Assembly: GCA_046329105.1 (NCBI GenBank)
Contig: JAXLVH010000004.1
Coordinates: 29,938-93,937, forward strand
Origin: Flavobacteriales bacterium
Lineage (GTDB): Bacteria > Bacteroidota > Bacteroidia > Flavobacteriales_F > PHOS-HE28
Reading direction: 5' to 3'
Length of the DNA stretch: 64,000 nucleotides
Made by a program: the position numbers and the translations under genes. A model generated the notes under the pieces. It saw only the letters and a list, made by a program, of their open reading frames with translations, ran no database searches and had not been told where the DNA came from. Positions 54,540 through 64,000 of the stretch are shown here, one piece after another; positions within the stretch are counted from its first letter, which is position 1; the number at the start of each line of letters is the position of its first letter.

Positions 54540-55325
54540 ATGGCACGTACTGATTTCAAGCAACTGCTCGACGCCGGCGTTCATTTCGGCCATCTGCGCC
54601 GCAAGTGGAACCCCAACATGGCGCCCTACATCTTCGGCGAGAAGAAGGGCATCCACATCATCGACCTGAACAAGACGGCGGTGAAGTTGGACGAGGCCGC
54701 CAACGCGATGAAGAACATCGCCCGCAGCGGCAAGAAAGTGCTCTTCGTGGCAACGAAGAAGCAGGCCAAGGACATCGTCACCGAGAAGGTGAAGCCCACC
54801 GGCATGCCGTACGTCACCGAGCGTTGGAGCGGTGGTATGCTCACCAACTTCGGCACCATCCGCCGGGCCATCAAGAAAATGGCGGCCATCGACCGCATGA
54901 AGGTGGACGGCACCTTCAACCACATGAGCAAGCGCGAGCGCCTGCAGGTGAGCCGCCAGCGCGAGAAGATGGAGAAGAACTTGGGCTCTATCGCCGACCT
55001 CAGCCGCCTGCCGAGCGCGTTGTTCATCGTGGACATCGTGAAGGAGCACATCGCCGTGGCCGAGGCCCGCAAGCTGAACATCCCCACCTTCGCGATGGTG
55101 GACACCAACAGCGATCCGGACCTGATCGACTTCCCCATCCCGGCCAACGACGATGCCACCAAGAGCATCGAGCTGATCGTGGACACCATGATCGCCGCCA
55201 TCAACGAGGGCATCGAGGAGCGCAAGAGCGACAAGGAGCGCGGCGAGGCCATCGACGAGGCGGAAGAAGGTGCCGAAGAGGCCACCGAAGAGGCACCCGC
55301 CAGCGAGGAGGAGGCCAAGGCCTGA
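54540..55325 (+). CDS. rpsB: 30S ribosomal protein S2
   Basis: 261 aa. MARTDFKQLLDAGVHFGHLRRKWNPNMAPYIF.... Acidic C-terminal tail. Confidence 0.9.
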   Translation: MARTDFKQLLDAGVHFGHLRRKWNPNMAPYIFGEKKGIHIIDLNKTAVKLDEAANAMKNIARSGKKVLFVATKKQAKDIVTEKVKPTGMPYVTERWSGGMLTNFGTIRRAIKKMAAIDRMKVDGTFNHMSKRERLQVSRQREKMEKNLGSIADLSRLPSALFIVDIVKEHIAVAEARKLNIPTFAMVDTNSDPDLIDFPIPANDDATKSIELIVDTMIAAINEGIEERKSDKERGEAIDEAEEGAEEATEEAPASEEEAKA

Positions 55326-55430: not shown

Positions 55431-56261
55431 ATGGCGATCACCGCTGCCGATGTGAACAAGCTCCGCCAGATCACTGGCGCGGGCATGATGGACTGCAAGA
55501 AGGCCCTTACCGAGGCCAATGGCGACTTCGATGCCGCCATCGACATCCTGCGCAAACAGGGCCAGAAGGTGGCCGCCAAGCGCGCCGACCGCGACGCCTC
55601 CGAAGGTGTGGTCCTCGGGCTGGTGTCCGCCGACGGCAGGCGCGGCGTGCTGGTGTGTACCAACTGCGAGACCGACTTCGTGGCCAAGAACGCCGACTTC
55701 GTGGCCATGGCCACCCGCATCGCCGAGACGGCACTGGCCAAGGGTGCCGACAGCGTGGACGCGCTGAAAACCCAGGCGTACGACACCAACGGCCTCACCA
55801 TTGCCGAGAAGCTCATCGAGCAGACCGGCGTGATCGGCGAGAAGATCGAGGTGAGCGCCTGCCACCTGCTGGACGGCGCCTACGTGTTCGCCTACAACCA
55901 CCCCGGCAACAAGGTGGGCAGCTTGGTGGCCTTGAACAAGGCAGGCTTCGAGACCGCGGCCAAGGACGTGGCCATGCAGGTAGCGGCCATGGGCCCCATC
56001 GCCCTGGACAAGGCCAGCACCCCGCAAAGCGTGATCGACAAGGAACTGGAGATCGGCAAGGAACTCGCCATCCAGGAGGGCAAGCCCGCCGACATGGCCG
56101 AGAAGATCGCCCAGGGCCGCCTCAACAAGTTCTTCAAGGAGAGCACCCTGCTCGCCCAGGAGTTCATCAAGGACAACAAGCTCAGCGTGGAACAATACCT
56201 CAAGAGCGTGGACAAGGAGCTCACCTGCACGGGCTTCAAACGCCACTCGCTCACGGTGTGA
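55431..56261 (+). CDS. tsf: Translation elongation factor Ts
   Basis: 276 aa. UBA-like N-terminus (ITAADVNKLRQITGAGMMDCKKAL). Follows rpsB. Confidence 0.9.
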   Translation: MAITAADVNKLRQITGAGMMDCKKALTEANGDFDAAIDILRKQGQKVAAKRADRDASEGVVLGLVSADGRRGVLVCTNCETDFVAKNADFVAMATRIAETALAKGADSVDALKTQAYDTNGLTIAEKLIEQTGVIGEKIEVSACHLLDGAYVFAYNHPGNKVGSLVALNKAGFETAAKDVAMQVAAMGPIALDKASTPQSVIDKELEIGKELAIQEGKPADMAEKIAQGRLNKFFKESTLLAQEFIKDNKLSVEQYLKSVDKELTCTGFKRHSLTV

Positions 56262-56287
56262 TCCGCTGACCTGTCAGAAGCATCGAA

Positions 56288-56325
56288 AAGCCCCCTGCCG
56301 CGCGGCAGGGGGCTTTCCATTTCTG
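56288..56325 (+). terminator. Rho-independent terminator after tsf
   Basis: AAAAGCCCCCTGCCG-CGC-GGCAGGGGGCTTTCCATTTC: 11-bp GC stem, 3-nt loop, T-rich tail. Confidence 0.75.
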
Positions 56326-56383
56326 GTAAGCGGGTAGCTTCGTGCAGCAGCAGGGCTGGCATCAAGACCACCTGCCGGGCATC

Positions 56384-58123
56384 ATGAGCTGGAGCGTCTT
56401 TCCTGTTCTGCGGTATCTCTGCGCGCTCCTCTTCGCGGGCAGTGTATCGCTCCTTAACGCCCAAGTGGATTGCCTCGGTGTGAATGGTGGGGCGGCACTG
56501 CCGGGGACGCCGTGCGATGATGGGCAGGCGTTCACCGTCGGTGACATCTGGAATGTGGACTGCACCTGTATCGGATACTGCGGCGGCGGCCCTTTTGGGC
56601 AAGCCATGGTCGGCGGAGCATGCGATGACATGGATCCCGCAACCGTTAACGATTTCTGGTGGCCCGGCTGCATCTGCCACGGCTTTTGTGTGATGCAATA
56701 TGGGCTGCCCGGCGCATCGTGTGATGATGGGAGCCCTGCGACCAACGATGACATCGTGGACCAATGGGGCTGCACTTGCACCGGTTGGCAGAACCTGATC
56801 ACGGGTCAGGTCTTCTTGGACGTGGACCTTGATGGCGTGTTCGGCGGGCCGGACATGCCGATCCAGAACAGAACTGTACAGGCGGGTTTTTCTTGGCTGC
56901 ATACCACCACGGACTCGAACGGCGAGTTCGAGTTCCGCGTCGGCCCCGGCTTTTATACCCTCTTGGCGGCATCCGGAAACTACGACGCTCCGGCCCAAGT
57001 GAACCCGCCGATCGACCTGAGCGTGCCCGGCTCGTCCAGCACAGGCAATCCGTTGGCTATGAACCCTTCCGCGTCGCTGGCGGACCTTGCAGTGGACCTG
57101 ACCACCACACCGGCCCGCCCTATTTACCGCAACTGGATCACCGTGGTCTGCACCAACGAGGGCACCTTGCCCGCCGATGGCGAATTGACGCTCACTCTTG
57201 ATGCACAGCAGGTGTACGAGGACTCTTATCCTGCGGGGAACGTGGTCGGCAACACCGTCAGTTGGACGTTACCGTTGATGCAACTGGGCGAGACTTTCGT
57301 GGCGGAGGTGCGCGTCCGGACACCGAACGGCACACCGCTCGGGACCAGCTTGACCTACGCGGCGCAAGTGGTCGCGCCATCCGATGCGGAGCCCGCCAAC
57401 AATACGGACGGCTTCGACCATCAGGTGGTCGGTTCCTTCGACCCGAACGATATCGCGGTCCATCCGGCACTGTTGTCGAGCGGGGATATCGCGCAGGGGA
57501 CGCCCGTAACGTACACCATCCGCTTCCAGAACACGGGTACCTGGTTGGCGGAGAACGTTCGCATCGCCGATGTGCTTCCCCCGCTGGTGCGCCCCGGATC
57601 GTTCGAGTTCGTAGCCAGCAGCCACCCGTGCCATGCGCAACTGGACAACAGCCTGCTCGAGTTCCGTTTCGACAATATCATGCTCCCGGACAGCAATGCC
57701 AACGAGCCGGAGAGCCACGGCTGGGTGATGTTCCGCGTGACGCCGCAGAACTTCCTGCAGCCCGGCGCCTCGGTGGGCAACAGCGCGAGCATCTTCTTCG
57801 ACTTCAACGAACCCGTGATCACCAACACGGCGGTCTTCAGCGTCGAGTTGAGCACTGGCGTGGCCGAACCCCCACGCGAAGAGTTGACGCTCTGGCCCAA
57901 CCCATCGACCGATGTGCTGCACGTTTCGTTGCCACCTGCGACGGGCCCGGGCGCACGGCTGTCGCTCGTGGACATGGGCGGTCGCACGGTGCGCCGTGTG
58001 AACACCACAGGCCAGGGCACGGTGGAGATCCCGGTGGCGAACCTGCCGGACGGCCTGTACGCGGTACGGTTGGAGGGCGCGGGCGGCGGCATCCTCACGC
58101 GGCGGTTCCTGAAGTTGCGCTGA
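56384..58123 (+). CDS. T9SS cargo protein with N-terminal Cys-rich repeats and DUF11-like (conserved repeat) domain
   Basis: Signal peptide ([27 protein letters not shown]). Three C-D-D-G/C-x-C repeats. DUF11-like [10 protein letters not shown]...[11 protein letters not shown]-terminal [16 protein letters not shown]...RFLKLR T9SS CTD. Inserted between tsf and pyrH. Confidence 0.7.
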
Positions 58124-58187
58124 GGCACAACGCGGAGTTGACCTCGGCCCGCGCCTTTTTCATTGCTTTGGGCCCGAACCCCACCAC

Positions 58188-58916
58188 ATGGCCAAGGCGA
58201 AAACGGAACGCACGTACAAGCGCATCCTTCTGAAGCTCTCCGGCGAAAGCCTCATGGGCGGCAAGAACTACGGTATCGACGATGCGATGCTGAAGGCTTA
58301 CGCCGACGAGATCATCGCCGTGGCCAAGGGCGGCACACAGGTGGCGGTGGTCATCGGCGGGGGCAACATCTACCGGGGCATGAACGCCAGCGGCAGCGGT
58401 ATCGACCGGGTGCAGGGCGACCACATGGGCATGCTGGCCACCATGATCAACAGCCTGGCCCTGCAGAGCGCCCTGGAGGCCAAGGGGCAGAGCACGCGCC
58501 TGCAGAGCGCCATCAAGATGGAGCAGATCGCCGAGCCCTTCATCCGTCGCCGGGCCGTGCGCCACTTGGAAAAGGGCCGCATCGTGATCTTCGGTGCCGG
58601 CACGGGCAATCCCTACTTCACCACCGACACCGCCGCCAGTTTGCGCGCCATCGAGATCGAGGCCGACGTGATCCTCAAGGGCACGCGTGTGGACGGCATC
58701 TACACCGCCGATCCCGAGAAGGACAAGAAGGCGAAGAAGTACGACCGCATCACCTTCGACGAGGCCTACGACAAGGGCCTCAGCGTGATGGACCTCACGG
58801 CCTTCACGCTCTGCCGCGAGAACAACCTGCCCATCATCGTCTTCGACATGAACAAGCGCGGCAACCTGCGCAAGGTGGTGGCCGGCGAGAAGGTGGGCAC
58901 GTTGGTGGAGGTGTGA
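58188..58916 (+). CDS. pyrH: UMP kinase
   Basis: 242 aa. [38 protein letters not shown] motifs. Confidence 0.9.
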
Positions 58917-58957
58917 AGGCCATGTGCGCATGCGCGCATGAGAAAGGATGCGTAATT

Positions 58958-58975
58958 TTGGATTTGCAAATCCAA
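58958..58975. promoter_or_regulatory. Perfect 18-bp palindrome TTGGATTTGCAAATCCAA (candidate operator) upstream of the putative TA pair, preceded by palindrome CATGCGCGCATG (58929-58940)
   Basis: Perfect dyad symmetry, AT-rich in a 65% GC background, ~35-50 bp upstream of the next gene start. Confidence 0.4.
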
Positions 58976-59009
58976 TATCGACATGCGCGCCAGCACCGGA
59001 CCCGCCCCC

Positions 59010-59501
59010 ATGAAACCACAGGACATCGTGGTCCTATTGAGCATTGCCTTGCGTGAGCGCGGCACGTGGAAGGCCAAGGATCTGGCGGCGGACCTGGTGA
59101 TCAGCCCGGCGGAGATCGGCTATTCTCTGAAACGGTCGATCCAGAGCGGATTGCTGAGCGAGGACCAGGAGCTGATGTCCAAAGGGTTCCTGGACATGCT
59201 GTACCATGCCGTGCGGTATGTGTTCCCGGCAAGGCCCGGGGCCGAGGTACGCGGTGTCCCGACAGCCCACTCCGCACCACCCTTGAAGCAGACCATCGTG
59301 AGCGGTCCCCTCTTCGTTTGGCCCGATCCGATGGGCAAGGTGCGCGGGGCGGCGATACGGCCCTTGTACCCCACCGTTCCGCAAGCGGCGGCGAAGAACA
59401 AGGAGCTGTACGCGTTGCTGGCGCTCACCGATGCGCTGCGCACAGGCCGGGCGCGCGAACGGGAGCTGGCCATGAAGGAACTGCGGGAACGCATCGGTTG
59501 A
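59010..59501 (+). CDS. Hypothetical protein with winged-HTH-like N-terminus (candidate antitoxin/transcriptional regulator of downstream nucleotidyltransferase)
   Basis: Start MKPQDIVVLL (alternative upstream ATG at 58983). Putative recognition helix ISPAEIGYSLKRSIQSGLL. Stop is 1 nt before the next start. Confidence 0.35.
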   Translation: MKPQDIVVLLSIALRERGTWKAKDLAADLVISPAEIGYSLKRSIQSGLLSEDQELMSKGFLDMLYHAVRYVFPARPGAEVRGVPTAHSAPPLKQTIVSGPLFVWPDPMGKVRGAAIRPLYPTVPQAAAKNKELYALLALTDALRTGRARERELAMKELRERIG

Positions 59502-59502
59502 A

Positions 59503-60195
59503 ATGGCCACGAACGTCCCGATGAACCTGGAGATGCTCCAGCGTGTGGCGGAAGCGCTGGGTGGGGATCTGGAACGGGCCGTTTTCGTTGGCGGCGCTGT
59601 GGTCTCCGTGTATGCCGACGATCCCGCCGCTTCGGAAGCCCGGCCCACGTACGATATCGACCTTGCGGTCTCGGTGGCCACCGCCGGAGAACTGGAGACT
59701 TTGCGCGGCCGGTTGATAGCGAAGGGCTTCACGCAAAGCGCCGCCGACCCCGTTATGTGCCGCTTCCGGATCGACGGGATCATGGTGGATGTGATGGCCC
59801 TGGAGCCGGTCGGGTGGGCACCGGGGAACCGTTGGTACGCCAGCGGGTTCCCCAAGCGCGAGAGCCACGTATTAGCGGGCGGGCCACATATCCCGGTACT
59901 GCCATTGGCGTATTTCTTGGCCAGCAAGTTCGATGCGCATGCGGACCGGGGTGGGCATTCGCTCGCGAGCCGGGACCTGGAGGACATCGTCCATGTGCTC
60001 GACAACCGCTTGGACATCCCTTCGGTATGGCGGAACGCCGATCCGGCCGTGAGCGTGTATCTGCGGGACCGATTGTCCTGGTTGGTCCATCCGGACCAGA
60101 AGGAAGCCGTGTTGGGCCACATGGGGTTTTCCGCCAGCGAGGCCCGCTACCAGCGTATGCGGCGGGAGGTCAGGATGGCGATAGGAGGTCTGTGA
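59503..60195 (+). CDS. Nucleotidyltransferase-fold protein, AbiEii/DUF1814-like (putative type IV TA toxin)
   Basis: 230 aa. Pol-beta-type NTase motif near the N-terminus (FVGGAVVSVYADDPAASEARPTYDIDLAV = G[GS]...D.D). Size and tight pairing with an upstream small wHTH gene fit AbiEi/AbiEii-type operons. Confidence 0.5.
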   Translation: MATNVPMNLEMLQRVAEALGGDLERAVFVGGAVVSVYADDPAASEARPTYDIDLAVSVATAGELETLRGRLIAKGFTQSAADPVMCRFRIDGIMVDVMALEPVGWAPGNRWYASGFPKRESHVLAGGPHIPVLPLAYFLASKFDAHADRGGHSLASRDLEDIVHVLDNRLDIPSVWRNADPAVSVYLRDRLSWLVHPDQKEAVLGHMGFSASEARYQRMRREVRMAIGGL

Positions 60196-60302
60196 GCCGT
60201 ATCCGGATAGGAACGGAGGTCCGTCAACGGGCGCGTCCTCGCCCGGTCATGGGAACGTGAACCCCCGCGTCCAGTTATTTTCGCGACCCCAACACGAATG
60301 CG

Positions 60303-60851
60303 ATGGACGCCAAGACCCTGATCGCCCCGAACGAGGACCTGATGAAGAAGGCCGTGGACCACCTGGACCACGAGCTCACGAAGATCCGCGCGGGCCGCGC
60401 CAATCCCGCCATGCTCGATGGTGTGCGCGTAGAGGCCTACGGTAGCCACATGCCGTTGAACCAGGTGGCCAATGTGAACACGCCCGATGGTCGCACGATC
60501 ATGATCCAGCCGTGGGACAAGAAGATGATCGACGCCATCGAGAAGGCCATCCAGGCGGCCAACCTCGGGTTCAACCCGAGCAACAACGGCGATGCGGTGA
60601 TCATCAATGTGCCCATGCTCACCGAGGAGCGCCGCAAGGAGCTGGTGAAGGCCGCGCACAAGGAGGGCGAGCACGCCAAGGTGAGCATCCGTGGTGCACG
60701 CCAAAAGGCCAACGAGGCCATCAAGGGCGCCAAGCTGCCGGAGGACTTTACAAAGGATGCCACCGAACAGGTGGACAAGCTCACGGGCATCTACAACAAG
60801 AAAGTGGACGTTCTGATCGAGGCGAAGGAGAAGGACATCATGAAGGTCTGA
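60303..60851 (+). CDS. frr: Ribosome recycling factor
   Basis: 182 aa. Canonical RRF sequence (LDGVRVEAYGSHMPLNQVANV...). Confidence 0.9.
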   Translation: MDAKTLIAPNEDLMKKAVDHLDHELTKIRAGRANPAMLDGVRVEAYGSHMPLNQVANVNTPDGRTIMIQPWDKKMIDAIEKAIQAANLGFNPSNNGDAVIINVPMLTEERRKELVKAAHKEGEHAKVSIRGARQKANEAIKGAKLPEDFTKDATEQVDKLTGIYNKKVDVLIEAKEKDIMKV

Positions 60852-61239
60852 CTTCCCGGCTCCGTTCGGAGTGACGCCTTCCAGTCGTCCTTCCGTGCTG
60901 GTCTGCCGTTTTGATCACGGATCGGCGGTATTCCAGAAGTTGATGTGCATGGAACTGATCGTGCGGCCGGGCGGCGTGTACTGGGGCATTGCATCGGACC
61001 GCATGTTCCTGGCGAGGGGTTGGACAATGATCCCATGGATCACTGATCAGGTCTGGAGATATACTTCTGTTCGCTGAACCACCCGAAGAGGTCGCAGGTG
61101 GCCGAGCCACGAGGCGAGATCCTCGGTGAGGTCATGCTGAAGGTGAGCAGGCGGATCGGACAGCCCAGAAGTCCATCATGGTATCGGGCCTGCAGCCATA
61201 TCCGGGAGCACCGCCACGACCGGTCGATCCCAAGGACGC

Positions 61240-62427
61240 CTACCTGTCCTCGTCCTCCGTGACCCCTCGTGACCGCTCGCGGCCAGCGCTCCCGGTGTTA
61301 TGGATGGTACCTGAACCGGTTTTAGTGGACTCCAGGTGCCCGCTACAGTCCAAGTAGGCATCACCGGATCCCATCAGGTTCACCTTTCCGCTGCCCGCCT
61401 TCAGGTTCTCCGCATGCACGTCCCCGCTGCCCATGATGTTCAAGAGGATCCGATCGGTGGTGCCTGCCACTTGCACGTTCCCGCTGCCCATCAGATCGAT
61501 CGTGGTGGTGCTGATCACTTTCAATTGAGCGCACAGCACATCTCCCGACCCCTGCACCTGGATGTTCATTTCCGTGGTTTCGATCGGACCCGCCATATCG
61601 ATGTCACCCGAGCCCATCACGGAGAGTTGAAGCGAAGGCGTGTTCTTGAACTCCGCCACATGGATGCTGCCCGAACCATGCACGATCAATTGGTCCAAGC
61701 GCGGGAGCCGCACGGTGATCAACACCTTCTCCATGCCCAGGTCCATACGGCGCCGAGCTTCGTGTTCGATGGACAGGATCCCTTGGTCCACCTTGATGTC
61801 GAGCATGTCCAAATGCTGTTGTTCGCCTTTGGCCACCACGGCGAATTCACCTTCCTCCACACGCACATCGGAACTGGATCGCAATGCGATGCCCTTGAAG
61901 CCGGACAGGTTGAAGATGCGCTCGTTGGCAACACCCGTGGTCACCGTGGTCGGCTCTGGCATCGGTGCCGTGGCCTCTTGTACAGGAGTTCCGGATCCCG
62001 GGGTTTCCTTCGGCGCCTCGGTCTCCGTTTCCACGTGGAGGTCCTCGGTCCTCCGGTTCGCAGCAGGTACGACGGACGATCCTTGCTCAGGTCGGGGCAA
62101 CGTCGGCGTGGCGGCGGTAACGGTAGTTGCTGGCACGGCCGGTGTTCGAACCACGGTATCATTCCTTCGTGGAAGGCCATTGGGGACCGGCGTGGCTGCG
62201 GGTGTGCTTCCTGAAAAGAGGTAGAGGCCGGTGCCAAGGAGAAGAGTGCCTATGCTGGTCATGAGCAAGGTGTTCAGGTTGAATTTCAGCGTATGGATCA
62301 GCCAGGCCACGGCGCCCATGCCCAAGGGGAATGCCGCCACCATGTCCCGCACCTGTTCCAAGCTGACCTCCGGGGGCAGTTCACGCAACGGGGCGAGCAC
62401 GGCTTGTTCTTCCTCTGCGCGGTTCAT
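61240..62427 (-). CDS. Membrane protein with C-terminal DUF4097-like beta-helical repeats (putative anti-sigma factor partner)
   Basis: 395 aa. One TM helix (LMTSIGTLLLGTGLYLF). Pro/Thr-rich linker. Repeated GSG[DN][IV] units (GSGSIHV, GSGDIDM, GSGDVLC, GSGNVQV, GSGDVHA, GSGDAYL). Start overlaps the sigma-factor stop (ATGA). Confidence 0.55.
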   Translation of the reverse strand: MNRAEEEQAVLAPLRELPPEVSLEQVRDMVAAFPLGMGAVAWLIHTLKFNLNTLLMTSIGTLLLGTGLYLFSGSTPAATPVPNGLPRRNDTVVRTPAVPATTVTAATPTLPRPEQGSSVVPAANRRTEDLHVETETEAPKETPGSGTPVQEATAPMPEPTTVTTGVANERIFNLSGFKGIALRSSSDVRVEEGEFAVVAKGEQQHLDMLDIKVDQGILSIEHEARRRMDLGMEKVLITVRLPRLDQLIVHGSGSIHVAEFKNTPSLQLSVMGSGDIDMAGPIETTEMNIQVQGSGDVLCAQLKVISTTTIDLMGSGNVQVAGTTDRILLNIMGSGDVHAENLKAGSGKVNLMGSGDAYLDCSGHLESTKTGSGTIHNTGSAGRERSRGVTEDEDR

Positions 62428-63226: not shown

Positions 63227-64000
63227 TCAGGCCCACACCGGACTCCCCTCACTGCAGTTCCTGCACATTTCGAGCCCGCCCCGGTCGTGCAGCAGGCCCG
63301 CACGGAAGTCGCGGTAGGCATCGCTGTTCCATACCTCACGGAAAGAGTTCTTCCGCAGATCCCCGAGCACGTGGTGCGCGTCCTTGTCGAAGCAGCAGGG
63401 CACCACGCGACCGTCCCAGGTGACCACGCAGCTGTGCCACATCTTCCAGCAGTTGTCATCCAGCTTGTTCTTCACCACCCACGCACCGTCGGCGGTACGG
63501 CGGTAACGTGAATACTTGTCCTGTACCGGTATCAACGGGTGATCATCCTTCGGGTCGTACACCTGGGCGGTCTTCAGCCACAGGTCGTCCACGCCGATGC
63601 GTCTGGCTAGTGCGCGCGCCTCGGGGATCTGGTGCTCGTTCGGTTTCACCACAAGGAACTGGAACACCACGTGGGGTGAGAGGCTCTTCAGCTTCGTCTT
63701 CCACTTCACGACGCGTTCCGCCCCCTCGATCACCTTGCTCAGGGTACCTTCCTTACGGTACGCTTCATAGGTCGGCTGGTCCGTGCCATCCAGCGAGATG
63801 ATCAGGCGGGAGAGTCCACTGCGCACGGCAGCCTCCGCGTTGGCCTCGTCCAGGAAGTGGGCGTTGGTGCTCGTGCTCGTGTACACCCCGCGCTCGCTCG
63901 CGTACCGCACCATGTCCAGGAAGCCGGGGTTGATGAAGGGCTCGCCCTGGAAGTAGAAGGTGAGTGCCCAGAGGTCGCGGTGCAGTTCGTCGATGATGTG
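63227..64000 (-). CDS. Radical SAM / SPASM-domain protein (5'-truncated by window end)
   Basis: Visible part includes GEPFINPGFLDMVRYASERG (radical-SAM core strand) and C-terminal Cys-rich SPASM/twitch-like region (CWKMWHSCVVTWDGRVVPCCFD...CRNC). The CxxxCxxC cluster must lie beyond coordinate 64000. Confidence 0.65.
   Translation of the reverse strand, partial: HIIDELHRDLWALTFYFQGEPFINPGFLDMVRYASERGVYTSTSTNAHFLDEANAEAAVRSGLSRLIISLDGTDQPTYEAYRKEGTLSKVIEGAERVVKWKTKLKSLSPHVVFQFLVVKPNEHQIPEARALARRIGVDDLWLKTAQVYDPKDDHPLIPVQDKYSRYRRTADGAWVVKNKLDDNCWKMWHSCVVTWDGRVVPCCFDKDAHHVLGDLRKNSFREVWNSDAYRDFRAGLLHDRGGLEMCRNCSEGSPVWA

Follow-up and report, generated by a model that had tools for sequence, protein, structure and literature searches.

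The window analysed here, a stretch of 64,000 nucleotides (nt) from a Flavobacteriales bacterium (contig JAXLVH010000004.1), an uncultured organism of sludge, carries between pyrH and frr two adjacent open reading frames, ORF1 and ORF2, which we read, with a probability of about 0.7, as a two-gene AbiE/MenAT-like toxin-antitoxin (TA) module and a two-gene relative of the phage defence candidate PDC-M21. To judge by its sequence, ORF2 is a nucleotidyltransferase (NTase) of the DUF1814/AbiEii family and a putative toxin, in which the catalytic residues and the phospho-acceptor threonine are retained. ORF1 encodes its partner, and the pair is preceded by a perfect palindrome that is a putative operator. 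The features of the module are the following.

58953-58960, + strand: TAATTTTG box, which fits the Bacteroidota -7 box; putative module promoter, overlapping the left arm of the palindrome
58958-58975: perfect 18-bp palindrome TTGGATTTGCAAATCCAA, putative operator of ORF1
59010-59501, + strand: ORF1, 163 amino acids; an in-frame ATG at 58983 would give 172 amino acids
59010-59222, + strand: predicted winged helix-turn-helix (wHTH) of ORF1, residues 10-80 in the 172-residue numbering
59223-59498, + strand: C-terminal domain of ORF1, residues 81-172, a small alpha/beta domain and the candidate toxin-neutralising part
59503-60195, + strand: ORF2, 230 amino acids
59590-59664, + strand: NTase core of ORF2, G30 G31...R47 P T49 Y D51 I D53, conserved columns in 46 homologs
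59926-59985, + strand: C-terminal DUF1814 motifs of ORF2, invariant columns K142...R149 and S156 x D158 x E160 D161

The TGA stop codon of ORF1 (59499-59501) is separated by a single nucleotide from the ATG of ORF2 at 59503, and the ORF1 start at 59010 was picked by gene callers on 8/8 same-species contigs. The initial annotation, made from the sequence alone, had described an AbiE-like pair with these limits, this 1-nt gap and this position between pyrH and frr, and all of these are as it gave them.

ORF2 scores 38.6 bits against the Pfam family AbiEii/DUF1814 (PF08843), above the cutoff of 22.5. Its AlphaFold2 model, built on a 46-sequence alignment (mean predicted local distance difference test, pLDDT, 92.8), has an NTase fold, for which the best match found by Foldseek in the PDB is MenT1 (8an5_B, E 1.7e-5, template modelling (TM) scores 0.53/0.64) and the next one MenT3/TglT (6j7n, E 8.5e-4), the MenT structures 8an5, 8an4, 8rr5 and 6j7n being all among the best structural and profile matches. 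A profile of the ORF2 family, run against PDB sequences, also finds MenT1 (E 1.6e-4). These results are in agreement with the AbiEii-type NTase proposed at the outset. The motif then put forward, G-x9-13-D-x-D, does not describe the protein, as G31 and D51 are 19 residues apart (GGAVVSVYADDPAASEARPTYDIDL, residues 30-54); relative to MenT1, six additional residues separate the GG and TxDxD motifs in the ORF2 family.

G30, G31, R47, T49, D53, D96, K142, R149, S156, D158, E160 and D161 are invariant in the 46 homologs of ORF2, and D51 is nearly so (at least 90% of them). In the family profile alignment, T49 (codon 59647-59649) aligns with MenT1 T39, the residue that is auto-phosphorylated upon antitoxin binding, and D51 with MenT1 D41, the essential catalytic base (PMC11375011). 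K142 and D158 probably correspond, by residue spacing only and outside the coverage of the alignment, to K137 and D152 of MenT1, which are named as conserved residues (PMC11375011). MenT toxins act on tRNA, whose 3' end they extend, and are turned off by antitoxin-induced auto-phosphorylation (PMC10435456, PMC11375011, PMC7450476), and antitoxin-induced auto-phosphorylation has been reported for AbiEii as well (2026 preprint 10.64898/2026.01.19.700257).

The fold search also returns, more weakly, ANT(2'')-Ia (E 2.5e-3 to 0.1, TM about 0.48/0.58), and Pfam NTP_transf_5 gives a weak match below its cutoff. ORF2 could on these grounds be a non-toxic nucleotidyltransferase, for instance an ANT-like modifier of antibiotics or small molecules, placed under a dedicated repressor, in which case the pair would be no TA or defence module. 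We hold this to be quite improbable, since ORF2 finds its best matches, in sequence and in fold, among MenT and AbiEii toxins, its family keeps invariant both the C-terminal motifs specific to DUF1814 and the phospho-acceptor threonine, and homologs are found in restriction-modification (RM) operons and on plasmids, with no resistance-type context present.

ORF1 matches no Pfam family (E<=1) and no NCBIfam family. Its AlphaFold2 model (pLDDT 92.2) contains an N-terminal wHTH for which Foldseek finds IdeR, MntR and MarR domains (probability 0.9-0.96 over 63-75 residues), and its profile weakly matches the wHTH regulators 2d1h and 3zmd (E about 0.005), in agreement with the wHTH-like product first proposed. 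The predicted recognition helix spans residues 42-55 (59106-59147) and includes Y47 (59121-59123). The C-terminal domain has the invariant residues G86, R90, G91, T94, S97, A98, P100, W113, G118, G122, P127, L128, R153, G155, R158 and E159, and finds no fold relative in the PDB or BFVD, where the HTH alone was matched. Against the PDB, which contains AbiEi (6y8q), Foldseek returned generic wHTH domains only, and ORF1 as an AbiEi-family protein was rejected for want of both a Pfam match and a fold match to AbiEi. The family is large: 1.84 billion representatives, searched with its profile, gave 2386 clusters at 50% identity (E<=1e-10). The family assignments that the initial annotation had suggested checking by hidden Markov models are therefore borne out for ORF2 (AbiEii) and fail for ORF1 (AbiEi), and neither ORF matches an MNT or HEPN family.

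The two genes travel together. An ORF2-family gene lies directly after an ORF1 homolog in 60/68 non-redundant metagenomic loci with enough sequence, and in homologous loci the two genes usually overlap by 4-14 nt. Within the two-gene clade (the window and 45 loci) there is no conserved third gene, hsdR being next in 5 and a PrimPol-helicase gene in 3. Plasmids with an ORF1 homolog number 121 and come from Rhizobium, Pseudomonas, Acinetobacter, cyanobacteria, Deinococcus and Hymenobacter; the homologs bear the annotation 'hypothetical protein' and, where the annotation of the neighbour was seen (H10), adjoin an AbiEii/AbiGii gene. One metagenomic locus (L013, 1-8652) is a type I RM operon (hsdM, hsdS...hsdR) with three modules between hsdS and hsdR, namely DarT with the macrodomain protein DarG, a HARE-HTH/GIY-YIG gene and an ORF1/ORF2-like pair; the pair is found immediately 5' of hsdR in four other loci, and one homologous pair adjoins an integrase fragment and a PrimPol-helicase. 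The ORF1 family has no match in 50,697 GenBank phages and is found on only 3 IMG/VR contigs, which indicates that it is not a phage gene family. A defence role for the pair is suggested by this context alone.

ORF1 homologs are not always followed by an NTase gene. In L098 (3813-5020), a truncated homolog precedes a gene for a 211-amino-acid protein with the Fic motif HPFREGNGR, without any NTase, and this locus may represent a partner swap or a decayed locus. A viral contig (L176) carries a lone ORF1 homolog.

The pair is recognised by existing defence-candidate models. ORF1 matches PADLOC PDC-M21A at 1.6e-44 and ORF2 matches PDC-M21B at 2.4e-43, in the order A then B and adjacent. The ORF1 match spans positions 53-202 of the 205 of the PDC-M21A profile, and ORF1 therefore lacks the N-terminal extension of that model. 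PDC-M21 is a phage defence candidate found by 'guilt by embedding'; according to the supplementary material of that study, its definition derives from a cassette of three families with 166 occurrences (Payne et al., 2024, bioRxiv 10.1101/2024.01.29.577857; Supplementary Table 8). A literature search for 'PDC-M21' retrieved no paper, and the name appears only in a supplementary table of Payne et al.

By following the most distant ORF2 homologs, we reached loci with three overlapping genes, in Shewanella (L180, 2363-4378), in Oceanospirillum (L181, 1860-3909) and in L183 (1863-3875), where the A protein has about 213 amino acids and the B protein 235. These proteins score 255-282 bits against the PDC-M21 models versus 147-150 bits for the window pair, that is about half, and ORF1 is 46% identical to the Shewanella A protein. 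The third gene matches PDC-M21C at 6e-40. Its product gives 22.8 bits with Pfam PP2C_2, just below the cutoff of 24, and matches in the PDB tPphA (E 1e-4) and Streptococcus agalactiae Stp1 (E 5e-3); PDC-M21C thus resembles a PP2C-like Ser/Thr phosphatase, an assignment not stated in the searched passages of the main text and supplement of Payne et al. With its lower A and B scores and no C gene, the window pair is a two-gene relative of PDC-M21, and the phosphatase of the three-gene form is in keeping with a DUF1814 NTase controlled by phosphorylation.

Further evidence comes from the DNA upstream of ORF1. The perfect 18-bp palindrome noticed initially is present, and among spacerless perfect palindromes with arms of at least 9 nt, the 64 kb contain just one other, the terminator-like hairpin after tsf; when the 150 nt preceding ORF1 were shuffled, arms of 9 nt were reached in 7/2000 cases. 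The species holds two alleles of the pyrH-ORF1 spacer, of 93 and 110 nt (window 58917-58952 compared with L001, L003, L004, L007 and L008); a 17-nt indel and several substitutions, located just 5' of the -7 box and palindrome, distinguish them, and the 18-mer and the TAATTTTG box preceding it are identical in both. The ATTTGCAAAT core of the palindrome is retained in a metagenomic relative (L015), a GATTTGCAAATC core is also found upstream of distant homologs (L106, L153 and L175), and a shorter TTTGCAAA core in L180. The Bacteroidota -7 promoter consensus is TAnnTTTG; the TAATTTTG box is identical across the same-species contigs and reads TATTTTTG in L015, and a scan for sigma-70 promoters found nothing.

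We then surveyed the 150 nt upstream of 81 non-redundant homologous loci. A perfect inverted repeat with arms of at least 7 nt is found in 81% of them versus 12% of shuffles, and the best arm has a mean length of 9.8 nt versus 5.3 nt. These repeats, often in tandem, share the core W-T-Y-G-C-R-A-W (TYGCRA), and the cores are enriched upstream relative to the rest of the loci (TCGCGA 33 fold, TTGCAA 8 fold, TTGCGA/TCGCAA 9 fold). The type of core tracks the residue found in the recognition helix at the Y47 column, as follows.

Residue E: core TCGCGA, 25/35 loci
Residue F or Y: core TTGCAA, 10/10 loci
Residue Q: core TTGCGA/TCGCAA, 6/9 loci
Residue K: core TTCGAA, 4/7 loci

In a gammaproteobacterial locus (L183), the repeat directly follows a sigma-70-type promoter, TTGACA-N17-TAAAAAT, and in L180 it lies just 3' of a TTGACA -35-like hexamer, a placement that looks, in both sequences, like that of a repressor site. 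The 18-bp palindrome is thus a member of a family-wide upstream element and a putative operator. A two-gene homolog in Arenicella xantha (L182, 1850-1974) has two copies of a different palindrome, TTATCCTATATCCAGATATAGGATAA, upstream of its ORF1-like gene, which shows that the operator sequence has diverged in some branches.

The palindrome might have no operator function and be a product of chance or structure, for instance the terminator of pyrH, a promoter by-product or an insertion scar. Its overlap with a -7-like box containing TTTG means that promoter function could conserve part of it, and the terminator scan gives a weak hairpin at 58934-58953, just 5' of it. A loopless AT-rich palindrome is nevertheless not terminator-like, palindromes with the same core stand upstream of ORF1 homologs in unrelated contexts and phyla, their core type tracks the helix residue, and the window palindrome is invariant where the adjacent spacer varies, all of which makes this explanation very unlikely.

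The operator evidence speaks for regulation only, and ORF1 could accordingly act purely in transcription, as a regulator or sensor resembling the BrxR/WYL or CapH-type regulators of defence systems, which silences the NTase until its C-terminal domain senses a signal, without antitoxin activity at the protein level. The high conservation of this domain and its lack of a known fold relative are what might be expected of a ligand or signal sensor, and the few ORF1 homologs found alone (L176) or before another gene (Fic in L098) point in the same direction. The tight coupling to an ORF2-family gene in most loci, with overlapping stop and start codons, speaks against it, as do the characterised relatives, in which the upstream partner neutralises the toxin post-translationally, and the phosphatase of the three-gene relatives, which points to control of the NTase at the protein level. 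We therefore consider a purely regulatory ORF1 unlikely, and prefer the TA module, in which ORF1 would act both as regulator and as antitoxin.

Among the closest known systems is AbiE of Lactococcus lactis and S. agalactiae, an abortive infection and TA system that was assigned to type IV and for which type VII is now proposed. As in AbiE, the module is bicistronic, with the regulator gene first, a DUF1814/PF08843 NTase gene second and the genes abutting or overlapping; the partner has two domains with an N-terminal wHTH; an inverted repeat lies in the putative promoter region, of the kind that AbiEi uses for negative autoregulation (PMC7319586, PMC3985639); and ORF2 has a conserved threonine at the site auto-phosphorylated in AbiEii. 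Unlike AbiEi, ORF1 has no sequence or fold match, is shorter (163-172 amino acids) and has a C-terminal domain unrelated to solved structures, and unlike the longer DUF1814 toxins, ORF2 is short and has a fold closer to MenT1. SdenA, the antitoxin of a validated DUF1814 TA system mentioned in the AbiEii preprint (10.64898/2026.01.19.700257), has 174 amino acids and may be a counterpart of ORF1.

MenAT1 (Rv0078B/Rv0078A) and MenAT3 (Rv1044/Rv1045, TakA/TglT) are found in Mycobacterium tuberculosis. The RxT-x-D-x-D active-site loop of ORF2 aligns with that of MenT1, whereas overall identity with MenT is about 20% and the GG-TxDxD insertion sets ORF2 apart from MenT1. MenA1 is a small helical peptide without HTH or autoregulation and MenA3 belongs to COG5340; ORF1 is like neither. 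The likeness to PDC-M21 extends to homologs of both genes lying inside type I RM operons, the criterion behind that candidate, whereas the window lacks a C gene and its ORF1 is shorter than the A protein. Finally, type VII MNT-HEPN modules are also two-gene pairs with a minimal NTase, but there the NTase is the antitoxin and a HEPN RNase (Rx4-6H) the toxin, and the window pair has no HEPN protein. The MNT-HEPN reading was rejected, as neither ORF matches these families in Pfam, NCBIfam or PADLOC.

All this leads to the following model, drawn largely by analogy with MenT1, MenT3 and AbiEii. ORF1 would be made first, its translation being coupled to that of ORF2 through the 1-nt gap. Its winged helix would bind TTGGATTTGCAAATCCAA, probably as a dimer, and as the palindrome overlaps the -7-type promoter box, binding would repress the operon. 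ORF2 would block translation through the addition of nucleotides to the 3' ends of tRNAs, and the C-terminal domain of ORF1 would bind and inactivate it, a likely route being induced auto-phosphorylation of the active-site T49, as in MenA1/MenT1 and AbiEi/AbiEii. Loss of ORF1 or dephosphorylation would then free the toxin, and the freed toxin may cause growth arrest upon phage infection or stress, in the way of abortive infection or addiction.

Several points weigh against this model. ORF1 is neither an AbiEi nor a COG5340 protein, and its C-terminal domain is without structural relative, so that an antitoxin role is deduced from position and analogy; at about 50% identity across phyla, ORF1 is also unusually conserved for an antitoxin. 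A literature search found no experimental work on this pair or on other ORF1-family proteins. PDC-M21 explicitly has candidate status only in the source study (10.1101/2024.01.29.577857), where, in the supplementary material consulted, a cassette of the first two of the three families, FAM_01665>>FAM_00091, seen 713 times, is marked 'Reject' with no reason stated; this cassette appears to correspond to the window architecture, if, as we infer, its families map to the A and B models. AbiE of S. agalactiae gave no protection against 32 coliphages (AbiEii preprint 10.64898/2026.01.19.700257), and defence can therefore not be assumed for the superfamily. At the DNA level, the -7 box is the sole recognisable part of a Bacteroidota promoter, as no -33 TTTG element was seen. 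The association between helix residue and core type, matched in 0/10000 permutations, is given without phylogenetic correction, and L180, which combines K with TTTGCAAA, is an exception to it.

The pair is an accessory cassette of about 1.3 kb, inserted between pyrH and the promoter-like box of frr. The flanking features and the upstream part of the array are given here.

54540-55325, + strand: rpsB
end at 56261, + strand: tsf
56342-58123, + strand: gene for a 593-amino-acid secreted protein, between tsf and pyrH
58188-58916, + strand: pyrH (UMP kinase), left flank, outside the module
58921-58940: overlapping CATGTGCGCATGCGCGCATG dyads, including CATGCGCGCATG (58929-58940), outside the module
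60276-60283, + strand: TATTTTCG box, about 20 nt 5' of the frr start; promoter-like box of frr and right edge of the insertion
60303-60851, + strand: frr (ribosome recycling factor), right flank, outside the module

The genomes closest to the window are uncultured Flavobacteriales metagenome-assembled genomes, many of activated-sludge origin, to which its pyrH is 84-87% and its frr 84-91% identical. A scan of species-representative genomes with frr gave 80 related loci, in 74 of which pyrH lies immediately 5' of frr, with a spacing of usually 50-160 nt, against 1386 nt in the window; frr follows ORF2 directly, 107 nt apart, and there is no third module gene in the window. A homolog of ORF1 or ORF2 is found in 0/80 of these representatives, which identifies an insertion and not a housekeeping pair. 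The initial annotation had itself named two observations that would speak against it, namely a universal presence of the pair in orthologous genomes without TA-family matches and the lack of an NTase fold; the housekeeping reading is rejected by the absence of the pair from all 80 relatives, in the very spacer comparison that it had proposed, and an NTase fold is predicted.

Within the species, the pair is maintained. The same-species contigs L001-L008, from several metagenomes, all have the order pyrH-ORF1-ORF2-frr with an identical ORF2, and at least 24 contigs in several sludge metagenomes carry the intact pair with an identical ORF2. A diverged copy occupies this site in one metagenomic relative (L015), with 68% identity for ORF1 and 58% for ORF2 compared with about 90% for pyrH and frr, which implies either a much higher rate of evolution in the cassette than in the flanking genes or an exchange of the cassette. 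By alignment with the spacers of relatives, the insert is bounded on the left by the hairpin after pyrH and on the right by the TAnnTTCG box. No anomaly in GC content marks the insertion in the window, and no flanking direct repeats or target-site duplication, terminal inverted repeats or integrase were found around it.

The left boundary bears on the second dyad, CATGCGCGCATG, which had been taken together with the palindrome for an autoregulatory element. In the species' own 110-nt spacer allele, this dyad has mutated to CATGCGCGTGTG, and a similar hairpin, CATGTGCGC...GCGCATGAG, follows pyrH in a relative without the pair (L026), which assigns it to the 3' end of pyrH; the CATGTGCGCATGCGCGCATG dyads are probably, from these sequences, the remnant of a hairpin following pyrH. 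Only the palindrome, as a family-wide upstream element, keeps the role proposed for both. On the right, the TAnnTTCG box is found at the same position with or without the pair (L015, L017, L019-L022, L024-L026), which suggests that it is frr's own promoter, and the cassette need then not share a single operon with frr. An accessory module embedded in a core operon had been proposed; its accessory nature holds, given the 80 relatives, the 121 plasmids and the RM operons, while a single operon is not required. The TAATTTTG box of the module resembles this TAnnTTCG box of frr.

In related Bacteroidota, insertions have repeatedly landed in the pyrH-frr spacer (L016, L023, L028, L033, L036, L037, L081 and L092). 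The cargo found there includes a lipoprotein-like ORF, tandem repeats, a methyltransferase-like gene on the minus strand, outer-membrane-like proteins of 543 amino acids and a porin-like protein; in Mucilaginibacter, the spacer holds a RelE/YafQ-like TA pair unrelated to that of the window.

The rpsB-tsf-pyrH-frr array of the window has received a second accessory insertion, the gene for the 593-amino-acid protein, which has DUF7619, DUF11 and a Por_Secre_tail sorting domain of the type IX secretion system. In most relatives tsf and pyrH are adjacent, and homologs of this protein were found only in L022 (51% identity) and L016 (41%). A perfect, GC-rich, terminator-like palindrome of 30 bp, AAAGCCCCCTGCCGCGCGGCAGGGGGCTTT (56287-56316), lies 26 nt past the tsf stop; on this hairpin, Rfam gave its single match over 56000-61500, a sub-threshold and probably spurious one to the F6 small RNA (29 bits versus a cutoff of 46). 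Further downstream, L001 is 99% identical to the window up to about 63108, beyond which (L001 4318-5126) a DDE_3 transposase gene stands in place of the radical-SAM/SPASM gene of the window (63227-63913, minus strand); this difference is a strain-level rearrangement or an insertion of an insertion sequence.

The kind of module is ordinary and already catalogued as PDC-M21A/B; its interest is increased by the partner family, the readable operator and the phosphatase-bearing relatives. A broader proposal, which we put forward tentatively and to which we would give somewhat less than even odds, is that ORF1 represents a large family of antitoxin-regulators for DUF1814 toxins (about 2400 clusters in many phyla and on plasmids, without a Pfam entry), unrelated to AbiEi, MenA1 and MenA3. 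Its C-terminal neutralisation domain would have a new fold, its TYGCRA operator code would be set largely by one helix residue (E for CGCG, F/Y for TGCA, K for TCGA), and the PP2C protein of the three-gene relatives would reverse antitoxin-induced auto-phosphorylation. If this is true, the toxin would be activated in these relatives by phosphatase-driven reversal of that auto-phosphorylation, and the PP2C gene ties this branch of DUF1814 to the auto-phosphorylation control recently proposed. For the organism, the window holds a putative stress or defence cassette of accessory nature between two essential translation genes, with frr keeping its promoter-like box. For the family, the pair is an entry point into a branch of the DUF1814 (AbiE/MenT) superfamily that lacks a named partner family, a Pfam model and a structure, and for which the comparative data predict the DNA that would be bound, the helix residue that would set specificity and the threonine that would be phosphorylated.

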